From: a virus
DNA length: 64,000 nt
Direction: 5' to 3' (one strand)
IMG/VR virus record: IMGVR_UViG_3300017613_002264
Coordinates: 1 to 64,000 of that record
The number at the start of each line of letters is the position of its first letter. Positions within the stretch are counted from its first letter, which is position 1. Shown here in pieces: positions 10,421 to 64,000 of this stretch. The translations under genes and the position numbers were made by a program. The notes under the pieces are model-generated. The model saw nothing but the letters and a program-made list of their open reading frames with translations, was not told the origin of the DNA and made no database searches.

Positions 10421-10693
10421 ATGGGATCAACACTACCAAATAGCGGGTTGAAAATTACAGACGACTATGGCGAAGAGACGTGGTATTCTGACTTCAATTA
10501 TAATTGGACGAGGCTTAATAATACTTTACTCAAGTTGAGCGCATTACTCGACGTCGATGTCTCTGGTCTGGGTGATGGAGATGTTCTACTTTATAATTCT
10601 GGGTCAGGTAAGTTTGAGGCTAACCCTCCAGTACGGCCGCCGTACCCTATAACCACCACAACTACAACTACTACAACAACCACTACTACGTAG
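10421..10693 (+). CDS. stand-alone fibre N-terminal module protein with poly-Thr tail
   Basis: 90 aa. The same module (..NNTLLKLSALLDVDVSGLGDGDVLLYNSGSGKFE..) is followed by PPVRPPYPI, 12 Thr and a TAG stop. Confidence 0.45.
   Translation: MGSTLPNSGLKITDDYGEETWYSDFNYNWTRLNNTLLKLSALLDVDVSGLGDGDVLLYNSGSGKFEANPPVRPPYPITTTTTTTTTTTTT
10655..10690 (+). repeat. 12-Thr C-terminal tail tract
   Basis: Tail of ORF 10421-10693. Confidence 0.95.
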
Positions 10694-13976: not shown

Positions 13977-14022
13977 ATGAGAAAAGGCAATACGCTGAGG
14001 CCGCGTGGAAAGGGGTTAGATA

Positions 14023-15108: not shown

Positions 15109-15775
15109 CTACTCTAGGCCCTCCAGTTATAGTTGGATCGATAAAAGAGATATCCTCAATTTCTTTTCCAATGAAATCAGAGACACTTTTCGCTGTCTTC
15201 CTTGTGTTATGAATAAGATCATGGAAGGCGACCATTTTGTGTCTTAACCCTGTCACTTCAATATTAGTAAAGAGACTAGAATTATATCTACCAGCCAATT
15301 CTTCAAACTGCCCCTCATATTTCTCTTTGTTACCCCTTGCCTTCATTGAGTTAGAAACTTCTCTCACTGGTCGCACCATAAAAATGAGACGAATTGAATC
15401 AGTTAAACTTACCTCACGAATGACACTCCACCAACTGAGTAAAGTCAAATTAGTTCTCGGGTCTTTCCATCCCCAATACTTATACTGACCGAACTCAGCG
15501 ACCAGTCTTTTCATGGCCTGCCTGTGATGTATGTCGTCCGTGGGTTTAATATGAGGCATGTCTGGATCGAATGATTTTACTTTATACCCGCTGTCTCCGA
15601 GTATTTTATCGTTGATCCTTCTAAATCTTACATTCTCATAAAACCCGAGAGGATTTTCTCTCATCGGCGGTGGATACCAGTCTTCAGGCTTCCCCATGAC
15701 AATACCATTTCCGTGTAACATTCCGGCCATTGCAGACGTTCCGCTTCGATGCATACCGCAAACAATAATAATCAT
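15101..15775 (-). CDS. sulfotransferase family protein
   Basis: N-terminal IIIVCGMHRSGTSAMAG is a PAPS 5'-phosphosulfate-binding-loop type motif. WGWKDPR and FMVRPVREVSNS blocks are also present. Confidence 0.65.
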   Translation of the reverse strand: MIIIVCGMHRSGTSAMAGMLHGNGIVMGKPEDWYPPPMRENPLGFYENVRFRRINDKILGDSGYKVKSFDPDMPHIKPTDDIHHRQAMKRLVAEFGQYKYWGWKDPRTNLTLLSWWSVIREVSLTDSIRLIFMVRPVREVSNSMKARGNKEKYEGQFEELAGRYNSSLFTNIEVTGLRHKMVAFHDLIHNTRKTAKSVSDFIGKEIEDISFIDPTITGGPRVDE

Positions 15776-26876: not shown

Positions 26877-29495
26877 TTACCATTCTTCCTTTTTATACCA
26901 TGATTGATCGATGCCTGTCATTTCTATTTCGCTTTTTAATGGCACGATGAGGAAATCATATCTTTCCCTTACCTTGTTTTCCATGTACTCGCACATGGCG
27001 TCTACTACTTCTATTTCTTCTTCAGGATGTATATTCCAAACTAACTCATCATGGATTTGAACAATGAGTCTACTTCTAAAGTATCGTTTCGAGTAGGCAT
27101 TTAGTTTTATGTATGACCATAGCAGGCAATGGAATGCAGTTGCCTGAATTGGAGTATTTACAATCATGTTAGGAGTGAGTAATCCTCTTCTTTGGTGGCC
27201 GAACATTGTCTCTATATACCCATGCTGTTGATAGAAGGCGATAGATCTTTGTTGCCATTCCCTTACCTCCGGAAACTTTTCCCAGAAGTTTTTCTCTACT
27301 CCTTTTACGTGGTTCTCAAATCCTTTGAAATCACTTTTACTTTGAATTACTCCTTCCTCAATGAGATGTCTCCATACAGGAATATCTTCGCCTGTTTTAA
27401 ATTCACTACATAAGTGCCAAAGGTTTCTGGCACATGTCACATAATACGAACCATAAAACTCGGGGAAGACAAATTGATTCTTAGTATAGAATCTTAAATC
27501 TTTTGTGATGGTCTCATCGGTGAGTACAAATATCTCTTCTGCTTGATCCCTATGCATATCGGTTGTCTCATCTTCTACATAGGCAATGAGGTTTTCATCT
27601 TTAGTGTAGCAAGCGATAATACGGACCTCCTGACTTCCATAATCGCCAAAGCCTAACCGGCAACCCAACTCAGGCTTGAATCCAGAGCGAGTAGACTTCT
27701 TGGCTTCTTCTTCTCTAGTAGGAACATTTTGTAAATTTGGATCACTGGAACTACTTCTATATGACCGAGGGATATGTAGATCAATGAAGGCATGTATATG
27801 GCCGTCTACAATTTCCTTCGTAATTTGATGCATGTAAGTACCCTTGGTTTTTTTCAACTTCTTCCACTCAACTAACTTCTTTGCAAAAACCACATTCAAT
27901 GACTCCAATACCTCGGCCGTCATTCTAGTATTGCCTTTCTCGGTTTTCTCAGTTAGCTTTACTCCCATTACATTTTTAAACAATTTGATTTGATCGTGAG
28001 ATGATCCAAGATTAATGTCTCGTTTATACTTCTTTTTGAATTTCTTCGCCCACTTGCTGTCCATCAATTTACCTTCTAACTTTTCAATCTTCTCACCTAG
28101 TGAGATATCCTCCTCAATGTAGTAGAGTTCATCGACCGGAAATCCCCTTAGTTGAGTATCCGAAAATGCAAGCAGGCCACGATGAGTCAAATCATATGCC
28201 CTTGATAGATCCTCACTGCGCTTGATTATACCGCGTTGCAAAAAGAAAAGGCTTCTGGTGATAGCGGAGTCAAGGCCACAATACATGAGTAATTCTTCAA
28301 GTGGAAACTCGCCCAATCTATTTCTACCAGTACCCGGCACTTCTTTCATGTATGGCTTTACTCTTTTATCGTAGCCCACAATACCGAAATGGATGTATGC
28401 TTGGAACTTCAAGCCAGTGTAGTCTTTCCTGTCATCGATTATATGAGACGCGTTCATGGTACACCACAACCAACTAACTACTCGTCTCATTTTAAAGGTT
28501 ACCCTACTCCATATATCCTCAAACTTTAAGTTTTGAGCCACCTTCTTTATATTGGGATGTTCGAGATATTCAACCACGTAAGATATTACTATTTCGTAGT
28601 CGTCATTATCCCAATGAGTATAATCAATAGGGAAGGAGAATGTCTCACGAGGAGTTGAAATACTCATACACCATATCTTTCTCATTGGATTGAAAGGCTT
28701 GACCGCAGATGTCTCATAATCGAAAGTAGAAATCACTTTTATTTTATCGGCCCTAGAGAAAAGATCATTGAAACATTTCTGCAGGGTGATCATGTCAGTT
28801 ACTATTTTTACTTTCTTCTTGAAGTTTATAAATTTAGGAGGCTCCAGATCCAACCATTCAACGGCTTTATCAAGGTCTCTATCAATCAACCCCTCTATAT
28901 TTTTATCATAGTAGACATACCCTCGCTTGGTTTTCTTTTTCGACCTGAGTAAAAAGGAGGGATGATACATAGGGACTATCCACGCCTTTGTCTTCTTATC
29001 TGGAATGCATAATCCTCGCCATCTTGAAATACTCAATCTGGAGAATCTTCCTAAGTAAAAAGACTCAATAGCAGATGCACCTACTAACCATATAAATTCT
29101 GGTCTGAGTTTTTTAATGAGGTTATCTACGTAATACTCTTTACAACACTTGATTTGTTTGCGCGTAGGTTTTTTATTCTTTACTGGCCTGCAATTGACGG
29201 CATTGATTTTCCAGAAGTCTCTTTCCAGATCCAGATCATGAGGTTCTAACTTCTCACGAAATAAACTTCCTGATGAACCAATGAATTGAGTGCCCGGGTC
29301 AAAGTATTGGTTCCCCTCATCTTCTTCTCGGCCGGGAGCCTCGCCAATGAGTAATACCTTTAGCCTTCCTTTGCCAGTGACCTTCATTTTAGGAGTCACG
29401 CAACCCTTCCACAATCCACATATCTCACAATGGGTTTTGGAAACACCTGAACCAGTAGGCTTCTTGACTTCCTTCTTAGAAAAGAATCCTTTCAT
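26877..29495 (-). CDS. polA: family A DNA polymerase with N-terminal family-4 uracil-DNA-glycosylase-like domain and 3'-5' exonuclease
   Basis: UDG-like: CEICGLW..C....GKG..KVLLIGEAPGREEDE.....G.SG.LF. ExoI: FDYETS. Polymerase: SSDPNLQNVP, FGDYGSQEVRIIA (motif A region) and VQIHDELV (motif C). Confidence 0.9.
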   Translation of the reverse strand: MKGFFSKKEVKKPTGSGVSKTHCEICGLWKGCVTPKMKVTGKGRLKVLLIGEAPGREEDEGNQYFDPGTQFIGSSGSLFREKLEPHDLDLERDFWKINAVNCRPVKNKKPTRKQIKCCKEYYVDNLIKKLRPEFIWLVGASAIESFYLGRFSRLSISRWRGLCIPDKKTKAWIVPMYHPSFLLRSKKKTKRGYVYYDKNIEGLIDRDLDKAVEWLDLEPPKFINFKKKVKIVTDMITLQKCFNDLFSRADKIKVISTFDYETSAVKPFNPMRKIWCMSISTPRETFSFPIDYTHWDNDDYEIVISYVVEYLEHPNIKKVAQNLKFEDIWSRVTFKMRRVVSWLWCTMNASHIIDDRKDYTGLKFQAYIHFGIVGYDKRVKPYMKEVPGTGRNRLGEFPLEELLMYCGLDSAITRSLFFLQRGIIKRSEDLSRAYDLTHRGLLAFSDTQLRGFPVDELYYIEEDISLGEKIEKLEGKLMDSKWAKKFKKKYKRDINLGSSHDQIKLFKNVMGVKLTEKTEKGNTRMTAEVLESLNVVFAKKLVEWKKLKKTKGTYMHQITKEIVDGHIHAFIDLHIPRSYRSSSSDPNLQNVPTREEEAKKSTRSGFKPELGCRLGFGDYGSQEVRIIACYTKDENLIAYVEDETTDMHRDQAEEIFVLTDETITKDLRFYTKNQFVFPEFYGSYYVTCARNLWHLCSEFKTGEDIPVWRHLIEEGVIQSKSDFKGFENHVKGVEKNFWEKFPEVREWQQRSIAFYQQHGYIETMFGHQRRGLLTPNMIVNTPIQATAFHCLLWSYIKLNAYSKRYFRSRLIVQIHDELVWNIHPEEEIEVVDAMCEYMENKVRERYDFLIVPLKSEIEMTGIDQSWYKKEEW

Positions 29496-31830: not shown

Positions 31831-32736
31831 TTATTTGGTCATGTACCATCCTGCTTTCGTGAAAGCCTTTCTTACGGCCTTGACCTGACCATCAGTAGCA
31901 CCGCTTTCTTGGGCGAAGGTAACAACCTTTTTAATGACCAGTTTCAATTTCTTTTTGTCCGACTTCTTCGCCGGCATTTTGTAGGCTTTACCTTTCTCAC
32001 CCTCAAACTTGATCCGGAACTTGTCACCATCAACGGCCGCCGACATTTTCTTTGTGGCAACCCTTGTGCGGGTTTTCGGTGAGGAGTCGGCCTGTCCGCC
32101 CTTGGTTTTCTTACCTTTTTTCTTGATGGTTTTTTTGCCTTTCTTTCCCTTGGCGGTTTTCTTGGCTTCGGCCGCTTTCTTTTTCTCAAGGGCCTTTTCG
32201 ATTTGCTTGCGGGCCTTTTTGACATTTTTCTTGAGAACTTTTTTGATAGCGATTTTGAGTTTGTTCTCTTTGATGAAGATATTGAGTTCTTTTGGAGTCA
32301 TATCATGGATGTCGTCTTCTTCATCCTCCTCCTCATCCTCATCTTCTTCCTCATCTTCTTCCTCATCTTCTTCCTCATCTTCATCATCATCGCCATCGTC
32401 GTCCTCATCATCCTCATCGTCTTCGTCGTCCTCATCATCTTCGTCGTCTTCGTCTTCGTCCTCATCTTCGTCCTCATCCTCATCAACTTCCTCATCCACA
32501 TCATCGTCCTCTTCTTCCTCATTTTCAGAGAGAGAATTGTAGAATTCAAATGCATCATCCGGAAGATCATCGGTGAGACCTTCATCATCCAACTTCTCGA
32601 CATTGGCGACGAATTGTTCGACCATTTTGCCTTTCTTCAACCCGACCAGTTTGATCTTTTTCTTCATCAAACCAGAGTCGTTAAGTGATTTACAGGCACC
32701 TTTGAGTTGGTTAAAATTGATTGCTGACAAATCCAT
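31831..32736 (-). CDS. hypothetical protein with ~70-aa D/E tract and Lys-rich C-terminal half
   Basis: 301-aa ORF with an acidic run encoded at about 32311-32520, followed by KKAAEAKKTAKGKKGKK... Confidence 0.5.
   Translation of the reverse strand: MDLSAINFNQLKGACKSLNDSGLMKKKIKLVGLKKGKMVEQFVANVEKLDDEGLTDDLPDDAFEFYNSLSENEEEEDDDVDEEVDEDEDEDEDEDEDDEDDEDDEDDEDDEDDDGDDDEDEEEDEEEDEEEDEDEEEDEEDDIHDMTPKELNIFIKENKLKIAIKKVLKKNVKKARKQIEKALEKKKAAEAKKTAKGKKGKKTIKKKGKKTKGGQADSSPKTRTRVATKKMSAAVDGDKFRIKFEGEKGKAYKMPAKKSDKKKLKLVIKKVVTFAQESGATDGQVKAVRKAFTKAGWYMTK
32311..32520 (-). repeat. Asp/Glu-coding low-complexity tract
   Basis: ~70 consecutive D/E codons in ORF 31831-32736 (approximate bounds). Confidence 0.85.
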
Positions 32737-46399: not shown

Positions 46400-47917
46400 T
46401 TACTCATTGTACGACCGGCGTCTCCGCCGGGGCAGTGGGTTTCTTCTACTCACTCGATCAGGAACGTTAATACCAACAAGTTCCTCATCGGGTTCTTCTT
46501 CGCCGATTCCTAATTCATAATCGTCATCGTCATCGTCATCGTCATCGTTAGAGGTATTGTGTTCCTGTTGTTCCTCGGCACTTTCATTGAAAGCATAATC
46601 GCCAAGGTTGTCAGGATTTCTACGTCCCTCAAACAATTGAGCACGAGAAAGAAAAAACCGAACGGCTTCGAGTTGTTCATTACTGCAACTACTCATTTCA
46701 ACTTCATGTAGTATTTCTTCTTCAGGTTCTTCTACTACTTCTGGAACTGACCGAGTAATTGGTATTTCTTCAATACCAATAGGGAGAAGTCTGAACTTCT
46801 TACGATTCTTAATAATATTAAAACCGTATCCCCATTTGTTGTTTTTAAGGTTGGTCAATTGGCCTGAGACAAACTTCTTTTGAGCCCCAGTTCTCAATGA
46901 TCCAAACTCCTCATTGAGGGCAGTTACAATTTTCTCTTTTGTAACCCAATCACTCAAAAGCATCCTTACAATCGCACCCGTTTTGGCGTGGACTTTAGGA
47001 GGCTTTTGTTTCTTAGCCTCAGGATGAATAAACTTCTGAGCAAACCTTGACCTAGCAACATACGAATGAGCGGACCTTATAAAGTCTTGTTCGTAATTTG
47101 GCTCATCCGAATCAGAACTACTCGGCGTTGCCCGTTGAAGGGTTCGCCGAACCTGAATAGAACTACTCTTTAAGGCATCAATAAATTCCTTAAAGGTTTT
47201 GGTATTACTGGAAACGACACCACCGCAAAGGGCAATGTCAAGCCAGCGTTGAGTAATCAGGATCCAAGTACTCACTTTAGGCCACTCAACTGTTCCCGAA
47301 TGCAATCGCCATTCGAGCGTATTTCTCATTGAGATGGATCTAAAATTGAGTGAAGATCGCCTATCGCCAATATTGTTTCCGTACCAATAAACTGCTTGAC
47401 TTTGGCACTCGGGAGGGTTTCCCCATTGTCTACAGTAAGTATTACTCAAACGACTATTTGGTAATGCGTAATAGAAAAACTTCTCATCTACTCGCCAAGC
47501 ATTTGCTACTTTTACCAATTGCTCATCTGTGCAACCGCCTACATAATGGTGAACATGAAAGCCACAAGTTCTACTCGCAGTAGCAAATGGAGAACCAAAT
47601 CCATCGTCTAAAGCCTTGCAGACTACTTGTACTGCTTTCATTCCTTCCGTGCCTTTCAATACCGGTGAGACAATCTCCATGTTATATGGAAACTGACTAC
47701 TCATGTTCTCATTGAGTGCAATCACTGACCCGTCAGGCTTGATATGCCAAGTTGACTCATTCGAGGCATCTGTATCATGACCATAGGAGCCGTCGACTAC
47801 TACTTGATGATTAATCATGTTGTCTGAGAAGAATTGTCTAATCCTCTCAGCCATACGATGATCGCCTACGGATGAGTGACACTCAATCTCAATACCGAAA
47901 GTTCGTTCTTCGTTCAT
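46400..47917 (-). CDS. amidoligase (Amidoligase_2 / glutamine-synthetase-like COOH-NH2 ligase family)
   Basis: FGIEIECH, W.IKPDGS, MEIVSPVL.G and CGFHVHHYVGG, as I recall for the family. A long C-terminal extension ends in an acidic-then-basic tail. Confidence 0.7.
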   Translation of the reverse strand: MNEERTFGIEIECHSSVGDHRMAERIRQFFSDNMINHQVVVDGSYGHDTDASNESTWHIKPDGSVIALNENMSSQFPYNMEIVSPVLKGTEGMKAVQVVCKALDDGFGSPFATASRTCGFHVHHYVGGCTDEQLVKVANAWRVDEKFFYYALPNSRLSNTYCRQWGNPPECQSQAVYWYGNNIGDRRSSLNFRSISMRNTLEWRLHSGTVEWPKVSTWILITQRWLDIALCGGVVSSNTKTFKEFIDALKSSSIQVRRTLQRATPSSSDSDEPNYEQDFIRSAHSYVARSRFAQKFIHPEAKKQKPPKVHAKTGAIVRMLLSDWVTKEKIVTALNEEFGSLRTGAQKKFVSGQLTNLKNNKWGYGFNIIKNRKKFRLLPIGIEEIPITRSVPEVVEEPEEEILHEVEMSSCSNEQLEAVRFFLSRAQLFEGRRNPDNLGDYAFNESAEEQQEHNTSNDDDDDDDDDYELGIGEEEPDEELVGINVPDRVSRRNPLPRRRRRSYNE

Positions 47918-48019: not shown

Positions 48020-48901
48020 CTACTCACCATGAACTACTCGTTTGGGATTGTTACCGATTGCCGTTGCCGGAGCAGGAACTCCAGTAACGTCAGGGTAATG
48101 CTCAAACTCGTATGTCTCTTCTGCATCATAGTCAACGGGTTCAACTACTTCAATTACCGGATCTTCTTCGTACCGGCCGAGGTTTTTGAACTCGAGTGTA
48201 TTAAGGTCAACGGTGTACATATGTAAAGGCTTAGTGAAAAAAGACTTTACTTTTTTGACCTTAATGTTGGTAAGACCGGCCGCGTTGGTGTATTGGATTG
48301 TATCTTGAACAAGTTGCTTAGTAGAACAAAATACTCGCACGCCCAAGGTCTTTCTCAAATCCATAATGCACATAGGCCGATGAAGGTCACGCGCAAAGAG
48401 TAATTCTCTATTAGCGAAGTTCATTGCCACCATTGAGTAGCATTCAACTTCTGAAAGAATTTCTTTTACGAATCCCTTCTTCTCAACACATCTAAAAAAT
48501 GCTTCCGTATCCGACTCACCCTCAATTTTCGATTTTACTCGATGAGTAGTTGCCAGTTCAAAAGCCTCAGTCATGGTGCCGTTGTGGACTATCGCCCACT
48601 CATCGCCGACATATGGCTGAGTATTTAATGTATTGACCGTACCTACACTCGCGTTCCGGTTGTGGCCGACGAATACTTGACATTGTTTATTTACTACACT
48701 GTCTCGGTAATACTCACTTCTCTCATAGAATTCTGATGCTTTCACCGCCGACTTCTCAGTGATCAATTCTGAATCACTTGTGGCGAAAAAACCAGTTCCA
48801 TCAATTCCCCTTGCTTCGGAAACGACGGCCAGGATTCTCATGAATTTTGCGAGTACATCCGCATTCTTCGGCTTTCCTACATAACCATAGATACCGCACA
48901 T
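48020..48901 (-). CDS. class II (Ntn) glutamine amidotransferase
   Basis: MCGIYGY (N-terminal nucleophile Cys), VGHNRNASVG, IVHNGT and ESDTEAFF. Confidence 0.8.
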   Translation of the reverse strand: MCGIYGYVGKPKNADVLAKFMRILAVVSEARGIDGTGFFATSDSELITEKSAVKASEFYERSEYYRDSVVNKQCQVFVGHNRNASVGTVNTLNTQPYVGDEWAIVHNGTMTEAFELATTHRVKSKIEGESDTEAFFRCVEKKGFVKEILSEVECYSMVAMNFANRELLFARDLHRPMCIMDLRKTLGVRVFCSTKQLVQDTIQYTNAAGLTNIKVKKVKSFFTKPLHMYTVDLNTLEFKNLGRYEEDPVIEVVEPVDYDAEETYEFEHYPDVTGVPAPATAIGNNPKRVVHGE

Positions 48902-54726: not shown

Positions 54727-55053
54727 ATGGCAGGCAAACGATCACGAGCGGCGACTAAGGGACTCCGACCGAGTAAAACTATTACTGCTTCGCAAAGGAA
54801 GGCTCGTAAGTTGAATATTGAAGTTGCTAGGAAGGCGAAGAAACACGGCAAGTCGGCGAGTCAAATAAAATCCAAGCTGAAAAGCGGGGCATGGAAAAAG
54901 GGAGGTAGTAGTTATTTGAGATCGAGTGAAGCGGCTTACTACCTACGAGAAAGAGGTCTTGGTCGCAGTAAATCAGTATCCCGGGTCAGAGCAATTAAAA
55001 GAACCGAGGGGCAAGCAAAACGCCTTATCAAAGCCGGTGTTTTCAAACCATGA
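54727..55053 (+). CDS. small basic protein, RAATKGLRP family, paralogue B
   Basis: MAGKRSRAATKGLRPSKTITASQRKARKLNIEVARKAKK... GGAGAATTACTCATG start context. Confidence 0.6.
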   Translation: MAGKRSRAATKGLRPSKTITASQRKARKLNIEVARKAKKHGKSASQIKSKLKSGAWKKGGSSYLRSSEAAYYLRERGLGRSKSVSRVRAIKRTEGQAKRLIKAGVFKP

Positions 55054-55070
55054 CAAAGGAGTAATACTCA

Positions 55071-56426
55071 TTGGCAGATATACTACCATTCAATAGAATG
55101 TACACTATGAGGTATCATCCTGAGCAGGCGAGACTTTGGTCTTCTACTGCTCGTTTTAATGTGGTGCCTGCTGGTCGTCGTTCCGGCAAGACCGAGATAT
55201 GCGGAAAGAGGAAACTCATTTTAAAAGCATTACTCGGTAGTGACTTTCCCGACCCTCGCTTCTTTGCGGCCGCCCCTACTCGAGATCAGGCGAAGAGAAT
55301 TTACTGGAAAGACCTCAAGTTGATGACTCCCAAAGAATTCATCACGAATATATCTGAGACAATGTTGTGTATCACTTTATTGAATAATGCCGAAATTCAT
55401 GTGCTAGGGATGGATAAACCTGAAAGGATTGAGGGTTCCCCTTGGGATGGTGGATGTCTCGATGAGTACGGCAACATGAAAAAAGAGACATGGGGCGAGC
55501 ATGTGAGACCTTCTCTTTCTGATAGGCTGGGATGGTGCGATTTCATTGGGGTTCCGGAGGGTAGGAATCACTACTATGATCTATATAAAGATGCTCAAGT
55601 CAAATGTCTCGACGATATCGGAAAAGGCATACCTCCCGAGTGGAACCACTTCCACTGGATCTCAGCAGACATCTTGCCCGATGAGGAAATCGCGGCCGCT
55701 AAAAGAGACCTTGATGAACTCACCTTCCAACAAGAATACGAAGCCTCATTCGTTAACTTCTCCGGCCGTGCTTACTATCCATTCGACGAAAGGAAACACT
55801 GCGCCGCATTAGAGTATGATAAAAGAGCCGACCTTGAGATATGTCTCGATTTCAATGTCTCACCCGGGGTTGCTTCGGTTATACAGGAGCAATGGCTTCC
55901 TACGAGTATTAATGAGGAAACGTGGGGAGATGGAATAATCGGAGAAGTCTACATCCCCAAGAACTCCAACACAGTAAGGGTTTGCGACAAGTTGATTCAA
56001 GACTTTGGTAGGCATAAAGGCAAACTCTACTTCTACGGCGATTTTACTGGTGGGGCGAAAGGCACTGCTAAAATACTCGGTAGTGATTGGCAACTTGTCA
56101 AGCATAAGATGTGGGCTCACTTCGGCCGGGATAGATGCATCTTTAATCTGAAGGCAAATCCTCGAGAAAGGGATCGAGTCAATTCCGTCAACTCCCGACT
56201 ACTCACTATGGATAACGATGTTAAATGCATGGTAGATCCAAGTAAAGCACCGAAGACAATAAGAGACTTTGAGGGTGTCGCTTTACTCGAGGGTGGTAGT
56301 GGAGAAATCGATAAAAACAAAAACCCTGAACTTACTCACTTATCTGACGCAATAGGTTATAGGGTTTGGATGAAGTACCCAGTGAAAAGAAGATATCAAC
56401 CATCAGGCCAACGTTATTGGAAGTAA
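55071..56426 (+). CDS. terL: terminase large subunit
   Basis: VPAGRRSGKT (Walker A), GGCLDEYG (Walker B) and IGVPEG, with an acidic nuclease-type C-terminal half. TTG start with GGAG upstream. Confidence 0.85.
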   Translation: MADILPFNRMYTMRYHPEQARLWSSTARFNVVPAGRRSGKTEICGKRKLILKALLGSDFPDPRFFAAAPTRDQAKRIYWKDLKLMTPKEFITNISETMLCITLLNNAEIHVLGMDKPERIEGSPWDGGCLDEYGNMKKETWGEHVRPSLSDRLGWCDFIGVPEGRNHYYDLYKDAQVKCLDDIGKGIPPEWNHFHWISADILPDEEIAAAKRDLDELTFQQEYEASFVNFSGRAYYPFDERKHCAALEYDKRADLEICLDFNVSPGVASVIQEQWLPTSINEETWGDGIIGEVYIPKNSNTVRVCDKLIQDFGRHKGKLYFYGDFTGGAKGTAKILGSDWQLVKHKMWAHFGRDRCIFNLKANPRERDRVNSVNSRLLTMDNDVKCMVDPSKAPKTIRDFEGVALLEGGSGEIDKNKNPELTHLSDAIGYRVWMKYPVKRRYQPSGQRYWK

Positions 56427-56439
56427 AGGAGAATTACTC

Positions 56440-56661
56440 ATGGGAAGACGATCGAGAGCAGCGACCAAAGGTCTCAGACCAAAGAAGTCAATCACTGGTG
56501 CTCAAAGGAAAGCACGGAAAGTAAATATCGAAATCGCTCGCAAGGCGAAAAAGAAAGGCACCAAGAAACATTTCAAGGCGGCCTATCAGGAGCAAAGGTC
56601 TCATGGAATGCCAAAGAAGATTGCTCGAAACGTGGCATGGGGAATAGTGAGGAGAAGATAA
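56440..56661 (+). CDS. small basic protein, RAATKGLRP family, paralogue C
   Basis: MGRRSRAATKGLRPKKSITGAQRKARKVNIEIARKAKK... GGAGAATTACTCATG start context. Confidence 0.6.
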   Translation: MGRRSRAATKGLRPKKSITGAQRKARKVNIEIARKAKKKGTKKHFKAAYQEQRSHGMPKKIARNVAWGIVRRR

Positions 56662-56997
56662 TTGAATAATATCGGCGTATGGGCAGAAACACTCAAAGCT
56701 ATTCCGTGGGTACTGATTCTACAGATATCCGTCATAGGCATAGTTGTACTCATCGCAAAAAAGTATTATGAGAACATCTCATCTTACTTTATGTTTCGGG
56801 CGAATAAGGATCTCAGCAAAAACGTCAAGGTTATTGTCAACGGTGATAAGGGAGTTATCTCATACTACACATGGAAATTTATCTACGTCAAATTGAGTAA
56901 ATCAGGTAATGAACTTGTAATCCCTATTACTCGTTGGACTTCCCTACGATGGGAGATTGATAAGAACGGCATTGAAAGGGATTTGAAAGAGACATGA
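56662..56997 (+). CDS. membrane protein (one TM helix)
   Basis: WVLILQISVIGIVVLIA. TTG start immediately after the upstream stop. Confidence 0.4.
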   Translation: MNNIGVWAETLKAIPWVLILQISVIGIVVLIAKKYYENISSYFMFRANKDLSKNVKVIVNGDKGVISYYTWKFIYVKLSKSGNELVIPITRWTSLRWEIDKNGIERDLKET

Positions 56998-57281
56998 AAG
57001 ATAATGTAATCCAATTAAAAGGCGGTTCTGCAGGAGCCGAGACATTACGTAAGTTAGCAGATTTACTCGAGCAAGATAAAATCACTTCACTCATTGTAGC
57101 CGCAAATGAACCATACAATGAGGAAAAGAGAAAAGAGTTTGACTCCCGAGGAGTCATCCATCGCTATTGGTTTAGTGGCGGGGATATGGGATGCCTTGAG
57201 TTAGTGGGGCTTTGCGACTACATGAAACAGTTAATACTCATTTATATGCTTGACGATGTTGACCTTATAAGAGGAGAATAA
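56994..57281 (+). CDS. hypothetical protein
   Basis: 95-aa ORF with ATGA overlap upstream. Confidence 0.45.
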   Translation: MKDNVIQLKGGSAGAETLRKLADLLEQDKITSLIVAANEPYNEEKRKEFDSRGVIHRYWFSGGDMGCLELVGLCDYMKQLILIYMLDDVDLIRGE

Positions 57282-57282
57282 A

Positions 57283-58941
57283 ATGGCTACGGATACGAAG
57301 AAGAAAAAGAGTAATACTATGTCTGCTGAGGAAACCAAACTCAGGGCAACTCATCCGATCCACGATAAGTATTACGATGAGTGGACATTTTTAAATGCGG
57401 CTTATGAAGGTGTCCGGGCCTTGATTGCGTGGGGAGCATTGTACAAACACGAACGGGAGAGTGAGACAAACTATCAGAGAAGATTGAAAGCCGCCTATGG
57501 ATTCTCATACTCCAAATCTGTCGTCGATATCTTCAACTCGTACTTGTTCAAAAAGGAGTTTCCCTCGGAGATCCCTGAGTCATTGAGTAATGATGAGCAA
57601 TGGAAGCAATTCCAAAAAGACTGCAATCTGGAGGGAAGCACCTTTGATAACTTCTTCGTGGATGAGCAAAGGAATGCATCTATACTCGGTCATGTAGGAC
57701 TACTCGTTGATAAGCCTCAATCGGAAAAGGCAACGGTTGCTGAGGAAAAGGAAGCCAACATATATCCTTACGTAGTCGCCTACAAACCAATGGCAATAAT
57801 GGATTGGAAGATTGAGCGAGACGAGTTCGGTCGGAAAAAACTTACTTATCTCAAAGTACTCGATGACGATGACCGCTATCGCATTTGGACTCCCGAGAAG
57901 TGGGAAGTATGGGAGTTGCAGAATACCAAGACCGGTGAGAGGATAGGCGTTACCGAGATTACTCAAGTTGGTGAGCAACCAACTGCCGCCGAGAATAAAG
58001 GTAAAGGCATGGCGGCAGTGAAAGTCTCAGAAGGAGATCACGACCTCAAAGAAATTCCATTTGTTTTACTCTATAATCAGAAGAGTAATATCGATAAAGA
58101 AGTCGGCGTGAGTGATATCACCGATATCAGTAGGGTTGATGGAAGTCTCATTCGTAACCTTTCGCAGATTGAGGAAATCATTGACTACGCTGCCTTTCCC
58201 ATGATGAGGAAACCAATGAAGGAAGCCGGTGCCTCCGCGGATCCTGCAGATGAGGTCGGGGCAACTGCAGTACTCGAATTTGATCCCGACAATCCTGATA
58301 GTAAATCAGATTGGCTCGATGCTGTAGTAGAAGGCCCGATTAAGGCGATCATAGAAGTCATCGATAAAAAGATAGGTGAAGTTTATCGAAGTAGTAATAT
58401 CGGCGGTATGAGTGCAACCGAAATGAGTACATCTGCCAAGTCAGGTGTCGCCCTCAAAACAGAATTCCAACTACTCAATTCCAAACTCGTAAAGAAAGGA
58501 AAGAATGTCTCTAAGGCGAAGTATGATGTAACAAGGCTTTGGTTAATGTGGCAAGACCAATGGGATAAGTATAAAGATGATGTACACTTTTATCACATTA
58601 AGTCTTTTGAGATTGAAGACCTTGCCACTGACCTTGAGAATATACTCACTTCCTCGGTCATCGTTACTCAGTCCGATACATACAAGAAGGAATACCAGAA
58701 AGTCGTGGTACGTATGATTCTACCATCGGTCGATGAGGAAGTACTCACTGCAATAGATAAGGAAATCGAAGATGGTACCTATACTGGACTTGGTGACTTC
58801 TTCGCCGGTCAACAAGGTGAAGACGAAGGCGGTGAATTTGGTAAAGAAGGCAAACCAGAAGAAGGAGCACCAAGTTCTGAGGAAATAGGTGCTAAAGCAG
58901 TATCGACCGCTAAGGCAAAAGGAAAAGAGGAGAGTAAATAA
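57283..58941 (+). CDS. portal protein (putative)
   Basis: 552 aa, downstream of terL, with an acidic and Gly/Lys-rich C-terminal tail. Called on size and position; the N-terminal YDEW.FLNAAYEG pattern is reminiscent of DUF4055-type portals. Confidence 0.65.
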   Translation: MATDTKKKKSNTMSAEETKLRATHPIHDKYYDEWTFLNAAYEGVRALIAWGALYKHERESETNYQRRLKAAYGFSYSKSVVDIFNSYLFKKEFPSEIPESLSNDEQWKQFQKDCNLEGSTFDNFFVDEQRNASILGHVGLLVDKPQSEKATVAEEKEANIYPYVVAYKPMAIMDWKIERDEFGRKKLTYLKVLDDDDRYRIWTPEKWEVWELQNTKTGERIGVTEITQVGEQPTAAENKGKGMAAVKVSEGDHDLKEIPFVLLYNQKSNIDKEVGVSDITDISRVDGSLIRNLSQIEEIIDYAAFPMMRKPMKEAGASADPADEVGATAVLEFDPDNPDSKSDWLDAVVEGPIKAIIEVIDKKIGEVYRSSNIGGMSATEMSTSAKSGVALKTEFQLLNSKLVKKGKNVSKAKYDVTRLWLMWQDQWDKYKDDVHFYHIKSFEIEDLATDLENILTSSVIVTQSDTYKKEYQKVVVRMILPSVDEEVLTAIDKEIEDGTYTGLGDFFAGQQGEDEGGEFGKEGKPEEGAPSSEEIGAKAVSTAKAKGKEESK

Positions 58942-58960
58942 ATAAAGGGGAGTAATACTC

Positions 58961-59860
58961 ATGTCTCACCAAACAATAAAAATATTCGACCGTGATACAG
59001 AACCACAAGGCTTAAACATCGACATCGATGGTAATGTAGGAGTAGTACTTTATGATCAGTACGGAGACCCTTTGGTTACAGACGATGGCAAGGTATTAAC
59101 TAAAACATATCTCGCAGATCATTTTACCGATGAAGCAAGGGGAGTAAACGTAGACCGTGAGGGGCACGTAGGAGTTGCCACTCATGGGGATGATCGAAAT
59201 GGTGATTTAGTTCCTATCAGTGTTACTCCCGGCGGAAAGATAATAACAAAATCATCTCATGATGATGCTGTTGACTCTGGTGAGATATTTTTTTTAAAGG
59301 ATTTTACAAGGCCATCGGGTGCTGATACAGAACAAACTTTTACTATAACGATTCCCGCAAACCCTTATGGGTCATACTCGGAAGTCCATTTACATTGGGC
59401 TGTTCATGCTGAAGCCGAATTTGAAATGAGAACTTATTATGCCCCGACAATAAATGCTCCCGGGACATTACTCACTCCTCTCAATAGAAATGCAAACTAC
59501 CAAGGTCCCGGTGGTCCTGTTCCCATTTCTCAATGGAGGCGGGATGCTACATTTACAGACTATGGTGCTGAAACATATGCTGATGTCGTTGGTAATGGAA
59601 AGAGAAATGTAGCAGGACATAGTTTTCAGGGCGAATTTATACTCAATGCGAATTCCCTATGGAGTATGGTCTTTAAGAAAGTTGCGACGGGTACTCATTG
59701 GCTATCGTGGGAATTTAACTTCTCAGAAGATTTATATGGGGCGCAATCTTCAACAACTACAAGTACTACAACTACTGAACCTGGACCTGAGACTTACTCG
59801 GTGAGTAGTGATGGAGACGATGTAGTTCATGAAGGCGATTCAGTTATTCATACATTTTAA
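58961..59860 (+). CDS. virion-module protein, paralogue 1 (YYAPT...W.W...EDL domain), Thr-rich segment near C-terminus
   Basis: 299 aa. Its C-terminal ~130 aa align by eye with ORF 60592-61341. Contains SSTTTSTTTTEPGPE. Confidence 0.5.
   Translation: MSHQTIKIFDRDTEPQGLNIDIDGNVGVVLYDQYGDPLVTDDGKVLTKTYLADHFTDEARGVNVDREGHVGVATHGDDRNGDLVPISVTPGGKIITKSSHDDAVDSGEIFFLKDFTRPSGADTEQTFTITIPANPYGSYSEVHLHWAVHAEAEFEMRTYYAPTINAPGTLLTPLNRNANYQGPGGPVPISQWRRDATFTDYGAETYADVVGNGKRNVAGHSFQGEFILNANSLWSMVFKKVATGTHWLSWEFNFSEDLYGAQSSTTTSTTTTEPGPETYSVSSDGDDVVHEGDSVIHTF
59749..59778 (+). repeat. Thr/Ser-rich tract
   Basis: SSTTTSTTTT in ORF 58961-59860 (approximate bounds). Confidence 0.8.
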
Positions 59861-59873
59861 AAGGAGATGAGAA

Positions 59874-60578
59874 ATGGCTGAAAGAGAATTAAAAAACATT
59901 ATGAAATCTGGTGAACTGCTTGCGTCCCTTGTTGGCGGGAGTGTTAATGGATTGAAGGTCAGGGAGGGAGGGCAAATACAGCGAGTAGGGGATGCTACCA
60001 TCTGGGATGATCTTCGAGGAGATATGCTTGGGACCAGACTGCACGCTGGACAGGGAAAGGTTGATTATAATCTCACTGAGAATACAGTTACGTTTAACCC
60101 AGGTGGTTCATGGGGAAGAGAAGCAGATATAGTAGGCATGAATATTCAAACTCCTCACTCCATGAAGTTAGGTTCGTTGATACATCCTCATCTCCATTTC
60201 AAACAAGAGTCAAATACTGATTATGTTTTTGAATTGAGATATAGGATTCAGCAGAACGGCCAGGCTCCAGTAGTCCCATGGACCACAATCATTGCCACTA
60301 CTGTATATCCTGCCGTTGCAGATGTTGGTCTCTTATTTGATCCATCCAGTTTGCCAATTAATAATATACTCGAGTTTGGAGCCATCGCAGTACCCGGACT
60401 TTCCACCGCTGTCCAGTTCCAAATGATACGTTCTGATGGAATTGGCGGTGATATTGAGACTTACTTTTTCGATGTCCATGTTGAGAAAGATACAGAGGGT
60501 AGTGGGCGTGAGTATTTGAAATTCGACACAACCACTACAACCACTACGACTACTACCACGACCACAACTACTACCTAA
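59874..60578 (+). CDS. virion-module protein with 16-Thr C-terminal tail
   Basis: 234 aa ending ..LKFDTTTTTTTTTTTTTTTT-stop. AAGGAG RBS. Confidence 0.5.
   Translation: MAERELKNIMKSGELLASLVGGSVNGLKVREGGQIQRVGDATIWDDLRGDMLGTRLHAGQGKVDYNLTENTVTFNPGGSWGREADIVGMNIQTPHSMKLGSLIHPHLHFKQESNTDYVFELRYRIQQNGQAPVVPWTTIIATTVYPAVADVGLLFDPSSLPINNILEFGAIAVPGLSTAVQFQMIRSDGIGGDIETYFFDVHVEKDTEGSGREYLKFDTTTTTTTTTTTTTTTT
60528..60575 (+). repeat. 16-Thr C-terminal tail tract
   Basis: Tail of ORF 59874-60578. Confidence 0.95.
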
Positions 60579-60591
60579 GGAGAAATGAGTA

Positions 60592-61341
60592 ATGTCAAAT
60601 GTAACGCCAAAATATAAGGTTGGAGATGAGGTATGGTTTTGGGATCCTATAGATAGCCCGAAAGAAATTGTTGGAACGCATATAGCAGAGGTTCACTTCC
60701 GTTTAGCAGATGAGACATACTCATATGAGTTGGTTGACTATGTGCATCAGTCAATTAGCACTGTTCTGTTCCCTGAGGCAAACTTATACTCAACATTTTT
60801 AAAAGCGAAAAATGCTTATGAGGGTCATCCTGTCGAGGAGCTTATTGGTAGCGGTGAGGAATGGTATAATAAGGATTGGCAAGACGTTACTGATTTAAAG
60901 GCTTTTCTCATTCGTATGCCTCAAGTCAGTGAAGGCGGATTATTTGAAACTCATTGGAAATATCTTCTCGGTGCTGAGGGAGAATGCTCAATAGCAATTT
61001 ACTACGCCCCAACCTTTACCAGTCTTGGAACGCCAATGAGAATTTGGAATACCCATGGTGGTGGACCTCAAACTGGATATTACTCACAGTTGTATGAAGA
61101 TCCTGTTATCACTGATAATGGTGTCCTTATCTACCGAGATATTATGGGATCCGGTAGAAAAAATGATATGGGATATAGACTCAAAGGTAATTTCTTTCTT
61201 GAACAAAACAGTATCTATATAATGATTGTAGATAAAATAAGGGCAGGAGGACGTTCTTGGTTTGCTTGGGAATGGAAGTGGACCGAAGATTTACTTTCTG
61301 GTTATATAGTTCCTTGGACGACCACCACTACTACTTCATAA
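60592..61341 (+). CDS. virion-module protein, paralogue 2, short Thr tail
   Basis: 249 aa with ..IYYAPTF..GSGRKN..G.FFLEQNS...W.WKWTEDL... Ends WTTTTTS-stop. Confidence 0.5.
   Translation: MSNVTPKYKVGDEVWFWDPIDSPKEIVGTHIAEVHFRLADETYSYELVDYVHQSISTVLFPEANLYSTFLKAKNAYEGHPVEELIGSGEEWYNKDWQDVTDLKAFLIRMPQVSEGGLFETHWKYLLGAEGECSIAIYYAPTFTSLGTPMRIWNTHGGGPQTGYYSQLYEDPVITDNGVLIYRDIMGSGRKNDMGYRLKGNFFLEQNSIYIMIVDKIRAGGRSWFAWEWKWTEDLLSGYIVPWTTTTTTS
61321..61335 (+). repeat. 5-Thr C-terminal tail tract
   Basis: Tail of ORF 60592-61341. Confidence 0.9.
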
Positions 61342-61353
61342 GGAGATGAGAAA

Positions 61354-64000
61354 ATGGTGAGGAAACGAAGAGTGAGAAAACCGAAAAAGGTTAAGAAGAA
61401 AAAGTCCAAACGAGTGGTTGTCCCAAAAGCAAAAACTACTCGCCAGCAAGCAAGATTTATGACCACGAATAAGCGAGTATTGAGAAAATTCGGGCGTATT
61501 ACACATAGGACTGGTGCCCATGGTAGTAGGCAGCGTTGGAAAGACCCAGTTGGCGCAACGACTACCACTACTACGACCACAAGCATAAGTACAACTACTT
61601 CTCTCCCTCTGGTTACTACGACAACGACAACGACATTGCCGGTTACAACTACTTCAACTACAACGACGTTGCCAGCCACGACAACCACTACGACCACTAC
61701 GTTGCCAGTCACTACTACCACTACTACGACTACGACAACGACCACAACTACTACAACCACTACGACTGCGGCACCTCCGGCTCCGGTGAGTACTTTGTTT
61801 ACTTGTGGTGAAAGTGATCGAGGTCAAATTGGACATGGAGATCTCGTTAGCCGTAGTAGTCCTACTCAAATTGGAGCAGACACAGACTGGGATGATGTTT
61901 CAGTCGGCTTTGATTATATGACAGCTATTAAAGATGGTGAACTCTACTCATGGGGATATAATAATTGGGGAAGTTTAGGTCTTGGAGATGTTACTAATCG
62001 TAGTAGTCCAGTACAAGTTGGATTACTCACTGATTGGAAATCTGTCTGGAACGGAAGCAGTGCGTCATCGGCTTTAAAAGATGATGGAAGTCTTTGGATG
62101 TGGGGGTATAATCAGGATGGAGAACTTGGATTAGGAAATGCTGGAGCTGGTACTTATAGATCATCGCCTGTTCAAGTTGGAGCACTTACAGACTGGTCAA
62201 AGGTTAGGCCAGGGAAAGGTGTCACTTTAGCAATTAAAGACAATGGAACCTTATGGACTTGGGGTAGTAATTCAAATGGAGGATTCGGTTCAGGGGAACC
62301 TACATCAACTAAATACTCATCTCCTGTTCAAGTAGGCGCATTAACTACTTGGGCTGATTTGGCAGTTAGTCACCAATCAAATACTTTTTGTGCAGCAGTA
62401 AAGACTGACGGAACACTCTGGACTTGGGGTGAGAATTTCTATGGCCAGTTAGGACATAATAATAGGACTGATATTTCTCTTGCTACTCAAGTTGGAGCAC
62501 TTACAGACTGGGCAAAGGTTTCTTGCGGGGATTATCATCTTCTCGCTATCAAAACAGATGGTTCATTATGGGCATGTGGTTCTGGTCAAGCAGGATGTAC
62601 AGGATTAGGCCATACTAATAATGTCTCATCTCCAGTACAAGTAGGCTCGGATACAGACTGGGATGATGTTGCGGCAGGAACTTTTGTTTCTCTCGCTATC
62701 AAAACTGATGGAAGTGTTTACTCATGGGGTAGTAATAATAATGGTGAACTTGGACAAGGTGATACTACCGGAAGATCAACGCCAGTACAAGTTGGATTAC
62801 TCACTGATTGGGCGGTTATTTCAACTGATGGTACTGCGTCGGCATTTTTAAGCGTGATTCCCATAACCACTACAACCACTACGACAACTACAACCACTAC
62901 GACCACTACGTTGCCAGTCACTACAACCACTACGACTGCGGCACCTCTTGTTGAAACAACCTTGTGGGCTTGTGGAGATAATTGGGATGGTCAATTAGGC
63001 CAAGGCACAAGTGGGAACACCGATGTTTCCTCACCCGTACAAGTAGGTGCATTGAGTAATTGGGAATCTATTAAAGTTAGCGGAAACGGCATAAGTCAAT
63101 TAGCAATTAAAGACGGTGAACTCTGGGCATGGGGAGCAAATACCTATGGCCAATTAGGCCAAGGAAATATAACTTCATATTCCTCTCCCGTGCAGGTTGG
63201 AGCAGGAACAGACTGGGCAATAGTTGACATAGGTAGTAATGGAGCAGTACTCGCTATTAAAGATGATGGAACCTTATGGTCATGGGGGAACAATGGCAAT
63301 GGAGAATTAGGACAAGGTAATACTACTCATCTCTCCTCACCTGTTCAAATTGGTTCTCTTGATACATGGGAATCAGCAATTGCTTTCTCTTCATCTTGTT
63401 ATGCTATCAAGACCGATGGAACCCTTTGGGCATGGGGTCGTAATAGCGAAGGTCAATTAGGTCAGGGTGAGAACAATAACAAATACTCATCTCCTGTACA
63501 AATCGGTGCGTTAACTACATGGGCAAAAATAAGTAAAGGCAACTCAACTTGGGCTCATTTTATTAAAGACGATGGAACCTTGTGGGCTTGTGGTGCTAAT
63601 GGATATGGAGTACTCGGTACAAATAGTATTACTCCTTACTCATCTCCAGTACAGATTGGAGCAGATACAGACTGGGCTGATGTTTTCTCAGGCACATATC
63701 ATTCCATCGCAGTCAAAACAGATGGTTCACTTTGGGCATGGGGCAGAAGTAATTATGGTCAATTAGGACAAGGAGATGAGACTACTCATTCCTCACCTAT
63801 TCAGGTAGGATTACTCACCGATTGGGAACAACCATCGGTGGGATCATATTCAAATCTTGTTATCAAAACCGATGGTTCATTATGGGCATGGGGAAACAAT
63901 GATCAAGGTCAGTTGTGCCTTGGTAATATTACTCCTTACTCATCTCCAGTTCAAGTAGGAGCAGATACAGACTGGTCTTATGTTTCTGCGGCAGATGCCT
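61354..64000 (+). CDS. RCC1-repeat (beta-propeller) protein with basic N-terminus and two long Thr-rich linkers; 3' end beyond the window
   Basis: This ORF is not in the supplied track. I translated frame 1 from the ATG at 61354 (AAGGAG 8 nt upstream) through to 63999 and saw no stop across 882 codons. It has at least 13 blades of the pattern DG.LW.WG.N..GQLG.G......SSPVQ(V/I)G...DW. Confidence 0.85.
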   Translation, partial: MVRKRRVRKPKKVKKKKSKRVVVPKAKTTRQQARFMTTNKRVLRKFGRITHRTGAHGSRQRWKDPVGATTTTTTTTSISTTTSLPLVTTTTTTTLPVTTTSTTTTLPATTTTTTTTLPVTTTTTTTTTTTTTTTTTTTAAPPAPVSTLFTCGESDRGQIGHGDLVSRSSPTQIGADTDWDDVSVGFDYMTAIKDGELYSWGYNNWGSLGLGDVTNRSSPVQVGLLTDWKSVWNGSSASSALKDDGSLWMWGYNQDGELGLGNAGAGTYRSSPVQVGALTDWSKVRPGKGVTLAIKDNGTLWTWGSNSNGGFGSGEPTSTKYSSPVQVGALTTWADLAVSHQSNTFCAAVKTDGTLWTWGENFYGQLGHNNRTDISLATQVGALTDWAKVSCGDYHLLAIKTDGSLWACGSGQAGCTGLGHTNNVSSPVQVGSDTDWDDVAAGTFVSLAIKTDGSVYSWGSNNNGELGQGDTTGRSTPVQVGLLTDWAVISTDGTASAFLSVIPITTTTTTTTTTTTTTTLPVTTTTTTAAPLVETTLWACGDNWDGQLGQGTSGNTDVSSPVQVGALSNWESIKVSGNGISQLAIKDGELWAWGANTYGQLGQGNITSYSSPVQVGAGTDWAIVDIGSNGAVLAIKDDGTLWSWGNNGNGELGQGNTTHLSSPVQIGSLDTWESAIAFSSSCYAIKTDGTLWAWGRNSEGQLGQGENNNKYSSPVQIGALTTWAKISKGNSTWAHFIKDDGTLWACGANGYGVLGTNSITPYSSPVQIGADTDWADVFSGTYHSIAVKTDGSLWAWGRSNYGQLGQGDETTHSSPIQVGLLTDWEQPSVGSYSNLVIKTDGSLWAWGNNDQGQLCLGNITPYSSPVQVGADTDWSYVSAADA
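61558..61767 (+). repeat. 70-codon Thr-rich linker with repeated T(n)-LP(V/A) units
   Basis: TTTTTTTTSISTTTSLPLVTTTTTTLPVTTTSTTTTLPATTTTTTTTLPVTTTTTTTTTTTTTTTTTTT in the RCC1 ORF. Confidence 0.95.
62866..62937 (+). repeat. Thr-rich linker between the two RCC1 propellers
   Basis: TTTTTTTTTTTTTTTLPVTTTTTT. Confidence 0.95.

Follow-up and report, generated by a model that had tools for sequence, protein, structure and literature searches.

Why should a phage end, or interrupt, so many of its virion proteins with runs of threonine? The question is raised by a 64,000-nucleotide stretch of DNA (positions 1 to 64,000 of the virus record IMGVR_UViG_3300017613_002264, hereafter the window), part of the ~83 kb genome of an uncultured siphovirus-like phage, in which (ACN)n tracts encode poly-threonine tails and linkers. 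The original prediction from this DNA had placed such tracts in seven virion-module open reading frames (ORFs) and proposed that they are mucin-like O-glycosylation acceptors or extended spacers. Here we describe the tracts together with a six-gene sugar cassette that begins 45 nt past the last tailed ORF of the tail module (10421-10693), and consider it on balance probable that the enzymes of this cassette O-glycosylate the tracts in the host cytoplasm, giving them a mucin-like and possibly sulfated glycan. The window is a portion of the source contig, L140, and L-numbers throughout denote the viral loci compared.

Threonine tracts in the virion genes

A six-frame scan, combined with a per-ORF table of exact tract limits, located 16 runs of at least five Thr in the window, the longest of 36 residues. 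All fall within seven plus-strand virion ORFs and none within the remaining ~63 ORFs; by chance ~0.018 such runs would be expected in the whole window (background Thr 6.3%, 19,183 codons). The only other short runs are two of the form TTTT, one on the minus strand and one inside a glycosyltransferase ORF. The tracts and the genes that carry them, with one tailless paralogue, are as follows (protein lengths in amino acids, aa).

3-350 (+): 3' end of the gene for a 427-aa virion structural protein (phrog_687; full gene at L140:8707-9990)
303-347 (+): C-terminal tail of this protein, T7-S-T7
6682-10185 (+): fibre gene, 1167 aa, with a ~65-aa N-terminal anchor module and five ~195-aa domain repeats (motif, self-BLAST)
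6895-7071 (+): composite fibre linker, 40 Thr in 59 residues
7666-7773 (+): fibre linker of 36 pure Thr
8356-8427 (+): fibre linker, T16-STSTTTTS
10198-10410 (+): 70-aa paralogue of the fibre N-terminal anchor, without a tail (DNA repeat family, PHROG tail-fibre-related matches)
10421-10693 (+): 90-aa ORF consisting of the anchor module and a 13-Thr tail, nothing else
10652-10690 (+): the C-terminal tail of the 90-aa ORF, 13 Thr
58961-59860 (+): 299-aa ORF after the portal gene, paralogue of the 249-aa ORF
59747-59776 (+): SSTTTSTTTT, 27 residues from the C-terminus of the 299-aa ORF, the weakest tract
59874-60578 (+): 234-aa all-beta ORF
60528-60575 (+): its C-terminal tail, 16 Thr
60592-61341 (+): 249-aa ORF
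61318-61338 (+): its C-terminal TTTTTTS
61354-64000 (+): RCC1-repeat (beta-propeller) ORF, running off the window (PF25390 7e-150, PF00415)
61558-61767 (+): RCC1 linker, 52 Thr in 70 residues, with four LP[VAL] breaks
62866-62937 (+): RCC1 linker, T15-LPV-T6

The seven ORFs named in the original prediction are thus the right ones, with small corrections: the tails of 10421-10693 and 60592-61341 contain 13 and 6 Thr, where 12 and 5 had been counted, and the 16 Thr of 59874-60578 stand as given. Three further tracts lie on the source contig upstream of the window: the major tail protein (L140:4972-5523; phrog_807, 'major tail protein with Ig-like domain') ends TSTTTTTTTT, a 57-aa ORF after the capsid gene (L140:2816-2989) has a 19-residue poly-Thr tail and a 159-aa ORF (L140:3577-4056) begins MASTTTTTTT. 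Counted with the seven window ORFs, tracts are thus present on at least ten virion proteins, though not on the capsid protein itself.

Within the fibre one linker lies between the anchor and repeat 1, one between repeats 1 and 2 and one between repeats 2 and 3, and repeats 3-5 follow each other directly. The ~65-aa anchor module is common to the fibre, the 70-aa ORF and the 90-aa ORF (6778-6852, 10291-10365 and 10523-10597, at 63-71% DNA identity) and is probably a shared attachment domain; homologues of it recur across the near clade of relatives defined below. The RCC1 ORF runs from a basic N-terminus through a linker, a first propeller and a second linker to a second propeller. Its N-terminal 68 residues (61354-61557, MVRKRRVRKPKKVKKKKSKR...), which precede the first poly-Thr linker, are rich in Lys and Arg and might anchor the protein to DNA or to an acidic surface, and the tandem RCC1 genes of L002 have the identical layout of basic head, linker and propeller (L002:3867-4050, 5218-5400). 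The three ORFs that follow the portal gene match no family in Pfam, NCBIfam or PHROGs, phmmer against the PDB gave nothing useful for the 249-aa ORF or the fibre, and the AF2 model of the 234-aa protein, built from 3 sequences, is poor (pLDDT 45). Readthrough or fusion of tailed ORFs into the next ORF was considered and rejected: the tails are followed by stops and then Shine-Dalgarno sequences, with the next start out of frame (e.g. stop at 60576, start at 60592).

All four Thr codons are mixed in the tracts, as had been predicted. In runs of at least four, ACT occurs 76 times, ACA 46, ACC 41 and ACG 39, near the genome-wide usage, and a single codon is never repeated more than three times in succession. 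Identical neighbouring Thr codons make up 24 of 170 pairs, against 45.2 +/- 5.6 expected under random order (P < 0.0005); the same depletion recurs in L142, with a trend in L001. Such depletion is in keeping with selection that favours the peptide and also disfavours DNA prone to slippage. The 36-Thr tract contains 3.3 copies of a 30-nt unit, matching at 88%, which indicates some recent duplication, and a 9-nt periodicity was also found.

Conservation of the tracts in relatives

The tail-hub protein, used as a query against IMG/VR, retrieved 80 loci, 25 of them at a hub identity of at least 34% (the near clade) and 55 more distant. Of the 25 near-clade loci, 18 have Ser/Thr (S/T) tracts; the 55 distant ones (665 kb in total) have none, and five cultured phages with a homologous tail tip contain no in-frame tracts. 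Within the near relatives, the tails or linkers persist in L002-L004, both in the RCC1 proteins and in the homologues of the 299-aa and 249-aa ORFs; in L002 the 299-aa homologue reads TTTTT..TTTT at the equivalent place and the 249-aa homologue ends T7. In L001 and L011 the proteins that retain them are the fibre, the 427-aa protein, the 234-aa homologue and the small anchor proteins. The 427-aa homologue of L049 also ends in poly-Thr, as does that of L001, and tailed homologues of the 90-aa ORF are found in L001, L151 and L152. The 234-aa protein has only two homologues, at 66% and 59% identity, both with tails (8 and 19 residues); an IMG/VR peptide-pattern scan with this protein found no relative. 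At 50-66% protein identity, then, tract positions are the same and lengths differ. These kept positions, taken with the avoidance of identical codons, point to selection on the peptide, as the original prediction had argued, and judged from sequence the tract trait is lineage-specific, positionally stable and length-variable.

Relatives with other base compositions (L009, L010, L012, L015, L150, L157-L161) carry (ST)n or Ser-rich tracts rather than poly-Thr, the (ST)n tracts reaching ~158 residues in L009/L010. The conserved feature is therefore a tract of hydroxy-amino acids and not threonine as such.

Could the tracts be neutral low-complexity expansions, produced by slippage and without function? 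The duplicated 30-nt unit, the 9-nt periodicity and the variation of tract length between relatives would suit such an origin, and the claim that codon mixing argues against simple recent slippage has to be tempered to that extent. We nevertheless regard neutral slippage as very improbable, given that the tracts are confined to virion ORFs and absent from ~63 others, that their positions persist at 50-66% identity, that identical neighbours are depleted and single-codon runs short, and that tracts mark the near clade and none of the distant loci.

A second alternative concerns the DNA, which had been described as near-identical repeats that might mediate domain shuffling between virion genes; on this account the tracts would be mainly recombination joints, at which domains or genes are swapped and the peptide is merely tolerated. 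'Near-identical' proved too strong. Tract-to-tract DNA identity is 60-88%, and the longest exact matches between genes, 20-25 nt, are at the edge of chance (null 95th percentile 20 nt, maximum 30 nt). Longer exact stretches are shared within genes (41 nt between the second and third fibre linkers, the longest found, and 35 nt between the two RCC1 linkers), and module differences between relatives do fall at tracts, the RCC1 propellers forming one ORF in the window and two genes in L002. In addition, the fibre has five domains in the window, and the L001 fibre is 747 aa long, and the 234-aa gene lies by the portal in the window and by the cassette in L001 and L011. Module rearrangements thus exist, and lend shuffling some weak support. 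Codon scrambling, however, reduces DNA identity where a recombination joint would preserve it, and terminal tails cannot join two domains, so that we consider a main role as recombination joints improbable.

As to gene order, the tailed 234-aa gene adjoins the portal block in both the window and L002, while in L001 (10001-10717) and L011 (7459-8172) it closes the tail module and is followed by the glycan cassette, from which an inserted gene for an HNH/NUMOD4 endonuclease separates it in L001.

A six-gene sugar cassette beside the tailed genes

The cassette occupies positions 10738-15775 of the window and consists of the following genes.

10738-12000 (+): GT4-like glycosyltransferase of the GT-B type (weak PF00534, phrog_2170)
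12001-12777 (+): GT-A-like nucleotide-diphospho-sugar transferase (PF03407 E = 4e-4, under the curated cut-off)
12777-13976 (+): full-length homologue of UDP-sulfoquinovose synthase (SQD1/SqdB/Agl3)
14023-14556 (+): S-adenosylmethionine-dependent methyltransferase, Methyltransf_24, O-methyltransferase-like (PF13578 1.5e-15, PF01596 1.8e-6)
14557-15108 (-): GT2-like glycosyltransferase, 183 aa (PF00535, PF10111; 70% identical to L001:15743-16279)
15101-15775 (-): sulfotransferase, Sulfotransfer_3 (PF13469 7e-8, over the curated cut-off)

The first protein scores 24.5 bits against PF00534, below the gathering threshold of 26.4, and on such matches is a divergent family member. Its AF2 model (pLDDT 94.2) has the two-Rossmann GT-B fold, and Foldseek matches it with probability 1.0 to GlgM, MshA, BshA, WaaG and PimA, GtfA appearing only at rank 46. 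Both Glu of the EX7E motif (E312-x7-E320) are invariant in 14 sequences; in a set of 38, E320 never varies and at least 90% keep E312. We regard this GT4-like enzyme as a candidate initiating O-glycosyltransferase. In the GT-A-like protein the DxD motif (D125-I-D127) is kept as an invariant DID between the window and L001.

The SQD1 homologue aligns with NCBIfam NF041015 over positions 1-384 of 384 (1e-96) and with PDB 1qrr over residues 2-390 (E = 1.2e-82), and the catalytic Thr and YHxxK are kept (GTAGVYG/SVYHMTK aligned with GTMGEYG/SFYHLSK of 1qrr). With 324 bits against an equivalog cut-off of 575, it is best described as an SQD1 homologue whose functional equivalence the profile does not certify. 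No such homologue was found in cultured phages at E <= 1e-20. Neither the GT4-like and GT-A-like proteins nor the sulfotransferase gave anything useful by phmmer against the PDB, and no cassette protein has a transmembrane-like segment.

The six-gene order of the cassette is the same in L001, L008, L017, L142 and L230, the GT-A-like gene being kept within it in all five, and the sulfotransferase, 56% identical to L001:15060-15743, is kept in L005, L008, L017, L142 and L230. The window departs from the co-linear cassette of L001, L008, L017, L142 and L230 in that its sulfotransferase and GT2-like pair (14557-15775) is inverted.

Co-occurrence of the cassette and the tracts

The GT4-like family appears to belong to viruses. 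A search of 5.8 billion proteins returned 182 homologues, all on viral or metagenomic contigs; a two-motif peptide scan of 185,579 prokaryotic (GTDB) genomes found no family member, and tblastn of the GT4-like protein against 50,697 cultured-phage records, Che8 included, found nothing at E <= 1e-3. Among 22 independent viral loci with the family, 13 have S/T tracts on neighbouring ORFs, and these neighbours are virion genes wherever they can be identified, in loci of differing phage types with GC contents of 33-56%. L142 has seven to eight tailed ORFs and L143 three, with tracts of up to 51 residues, and in L228 the glycosyltransferase gene immediately follows a tail tube gene ending STTTTTS. 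The proportion of 13 of 22 compares with 0 of the 55 distant hub loci (Fisher P = 3e-9, kinship between loci ignored). Similarly, among hub loci with at least 7 kb of downstream sequence, a similar glycosyltransferase gene is present in 4 of 6 with tracts and 1 of 24 without (P = 0.003, kinship again ignored). Two phages of the near clade that carry S/T tracts have a different glycosyltransferase set at this position, following the small anchor gene (GT4+GT9+GT2 in L158, GT4+GT2+GT1 in L164), which is the look to be expected of diversifying glycan synthesis.

The eight family loci in which no tract was seen have their virion genes out of view or not recognised as such; the flanks hold replication genes in L017 and more glycan genes in L005, and some others are too short to judge. 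L005, which has the cassette and no tracts, was considered as a counter-example and set aside, because its flanks, made up of further glycan genes with no recognisable virion genes, render it uninformative.

A model for glycosylation of the virion

From the tracts and their conservation, the cassette with its enzyme folds and motifs, and the co-occurrence of the two, we infer that the enzymes would act on the tracts, and from the same observations what the sugars and the benefit to the phage may be. In our model the poly-Thr tails and linkers would be exposed, unstructured acceptor segments, O-glycosylated by soluble phage enzymes in the host cytoplasm before or during assembly. The GT4-like enzyme (10738-12000) would add the first sugar to Thr or Ser, and the GT-A-like and GT2-like enzymes would extend the glycan; the SQD1 homologue would supply UDP-sulfoquinovose, and the methyltransferase and sulfotransferase would decorate the product. 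Mucin-like, dense and probably anionic, the resulting brush would cover the tail tube, head-associated proteins and small baseplate-anchored stubs, and would also lie between fibre or propeller domains, where the linkers would be stiffened and extended. Such a brush may shield or alter the particle surface.

The original prediction of mucin-like acceptors thus gains in part, through the abutting cassette, the virus-only GT4-like family found beside tracts and the conserved tract positions. The cassette context had been missed in that prediction, and its addition, together with the family co-occurrence and the conservation, would seem to offer support that is indirect but substantial. The comparison of tract lengths among relatives that had been proposed as a check gave the result described above, with length variable and position kept.

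Several observations weigh against the model. Poly-Thr exists without this glycosyltransferase nearby: none of 120 IMG/VR loci, among those listed with at least 13 Thr codons and each at most 15 kb long, contains a GT4-like homologue. L155 and L163 have tracts and no glycosyltransferase within 10 kb, L167 has a glycosyltransferase and no tracts, and the eight tractless family loci belong here too. The loci compared are phylogenetically related, so that the Fisher P values overstate their independence and are indicative only. The GT4 fold is uninformative on the acceptor, as GT4 enzymes use many acceptor kinds, and the sulfolipid SQDG, too, is made by SqdB and a GT4 enzyme. Lastly, the C-termini of the Che8 capsid and tail tube, the nearest precedent, end ...NKTGS and ...YSDGS without homopolymeric Thr, which implies an acceptor of a different kind.

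Alternatively, the tracts might be unmodified spacers or entropic bristles, extended, hydrophilic and protease-tolerant, that set domain spacing and prevent particles from sticking, and the cassette a host-directed auxiliary module, for SQDG or a sulfated envelope polysaccharide, that is merely syntenic with them. Linkers between repeated domains suit a pure spacer role, many viral contigs have poly-Thr and no such glycosyltransferase nearby, the SQD1 homologue and GT4-like enzyme parallel the cyanobacterial SqdB/SqdX pair, and a viral UDP-sulfoquinovose synthase has previously been read as an auxiliary gene (PMC7785012). Yet typical host-derived auxiliary genes have cellular relatives, and the motif scan of 185,579 genomes found none for this glycosyltransferase; the GT-A-like, GT2-like, methyltransferase and sulfotransferase genes are superfluous to SQDG synthesis; in L143, L228 and L229 the glycosyltransferase occurs without SQD1 and still lies beside virion genes with S/T tracts; and C-terminal tails, on the 90-aa anchor-only protein or the tail tube, separate nothing. 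We therefore judge unmodified spacers beside a host-directed cassette to be rather unlikely, and retain glycosylation of the tracts as the reading that we favour.

Comparison with known systems

To our knowledge, a few mycobacteriophages are the only phages whose particles have been shown to be glycosylated; in these, the modification blunts antibody recognition. In the actinobacteriophages Che8, Corndog and Myrna, glycosyltransferases together with an O-methyltransferase are described as modifying capsid and tail tube subunits (PMC11600133, PMC12363180 and PMC11256854, citing Freeman 2023). The window resembles these phages in encoding soluble glycosyltransferases that adjoin an O-methyltransferase (the GT4-like, GT-A-like and GT2-like genes and Methyltransf_24, 10738-15108), in that the candidate targets may be surface subunits including the tail tube, and in that a glycan layer on the particle would be expected. 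It differs in that its glycosyltransferase has no sequence relation detectable by the tblastn search, in that tracts, 6-70 residues long and placed both as tails and between domains, are found on at least ten proteins, and in its low GC. Its cassette adds the UDP-sulfoquinovose synthase homologue and the sulfotransferase, both of them new in a virion-glycosylation setting.

The serine-rich repeat glycoproteins of Gram-positive bacteria receive their sugars in the cytoplasm from the GT4 enzyme GtfA, acting with GtfB (PDB 4pqg). There, as proposed here, long Ser/Thr-rich tracts are O-glycosylated by a GT4-fold enzyme and the glycan is then extended, and the (ST)n tracts of L009/L010 are comparable to theirs. 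The acceptors in the window are instead virion proteins, with Thr homopolymers rather than SxSx repeats. We saw no GtfB partner or accessory Sec system in the window, where no search aimed at GtfB or SecA2/Y2 was made; Sec export is in any case irrelevant for a phage particle. In mucin domains and in the Pro/Thr linkers of cellulases, dense O-glycosylation yields stiff, extended and protease-resistant segments. The Thr-rich linkers between globular domains are similar here, the LP[VA]T breaks resembling PT boxes, whereas those proteins are modified by host enzymes in the secretory pathway or periplasm and ours, as proposed, by virus-encoded cytoplasmic enzymes acting on nearly pure Thr.

We know of no case of sulfoquinovose O-linked to protein. 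UDP-sulfoquinovose is used for a protein glycan, an N-glycan, in Sulfolobus, with Agl3 as the synthase (PMC4388408), and the viral UDP-sulfoquinovose synthase gene cited above was read as host-directed, with no link to virion proteins (PMC7785012). The window shares with the SQDG and Sulfolobus systems a full-length SQD1/Agl3 homologue with catalytic residues, paired with a GT4-like transferase. It is set apart from the SQDG system in that the transferase belongs to a virus-only family and, judged by Pfam matches below threshold and by the motif scan of 185,579 genomes, seems to be no recognisable SqdX orthologue. Our literature search found nothing on poly-threonine in phage virions, and a single report of a viral UDP-sulfoquinovose synthase.

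For giant viruses, we are aware of no poly-Thr acceptor rule. Their fibrils and capsids are glycosylated by virus-encoded glycosyltransferases (reviewed in PMC9614988), and the parallel lies in a virus decorating its own particle with its own nucleotide-sugar and glycosyltransferase genes; they are, however, eukaryotic viruses and use other enzyme families.

Other features of the window and source contig

The window also encodes the following.

1353-6682: tail tip, GTA/phiJL001-type
55071-56426: large terminase
57283-58941: portal

Megablast of window positions 55000-64000 gave no match, and hence no close relative, among cultured phages, and the portal shares no more than 31% identity with its pelagiphage, Rhizobium-phage and T5-like counterparts. 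No tRNA genes were found that might give a clue to the host. The source genome is recorded as two contigs, of 82,998 and 83,017 bp, whose start points differ by their record coordinates, a pattern that a circular or circularly permuted genome could produce. We withdrew the assumption that a 1226-aa protein ending at L140:328 is the RCC1 ORF of the window, the coordinates being indecisive.

A family A DNA polymerase (26877-29495, minus strand) carries an N-terminal uracil-DNA glycosylase superfamily domain within one ORF (PF03167 5e-21 and PF00476). Imperfect long tandem repeats with units of 6-39 nt lie at 24358-24511 and 32318-32522; TCC/TCA/TCG-rich on the plus strand, they encode on the minus strand Asp/Glu-rich acidic low-complexity segments in ORFs 24160-25368 and 31831-32736 (both minus strand), which belong to the replication module and have no known family. 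An Amidoligase_2 protein and an adjoining class-II glutamine amidotransferase (46400-47917 and 48020-48901, minus strand) suggest small-molecule synthesis or a peptide-type modification. Pfam scans of 20 larger minus-strand ORFs detected no hydroxymethylase, which would have been a sign of DNA glycosylation.

Implications

Beyond the acceptor role of the tracts, we tentatively advance a more specific and less secure proposal: that a clade of uncultured tailed phages may build a sulfated, mucin-like glycocalyx, with sulfoquinovose and sulfated, methylated sugars on Thr tails and linkers. If true, this would be the first known sulfoquinovose O-glycoprotein and the first virion glycosylation system outside actinobacterial phages, and a viral 'sulfur auxiliary gene' may then serve the virion.

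The sequence rule that emerges combines virion poly-S/T tails or linkers with a GT4-like gene specific to viruses, to which genes for a UDP-sulfoquinovose synthase and a sulfotransferase are often added. By this rule a phage lineage widespread in the environment becomes a candidate for having glycosylated particles, and a poly-S/T tail together with the cassette would give a simple signature searchable in viromes. The 90-aa anchor-and-tail protein and the 234-aa protein offer small, defined substrates for biochemistry. If confirmed, the model would extend phage glycobiology to uncultured phages and add an anionic sulfo-sugar to its repertoire, with a bearing on particle stability, on adhesion to mucus or marine particles and on resistance to proteases or grazers.

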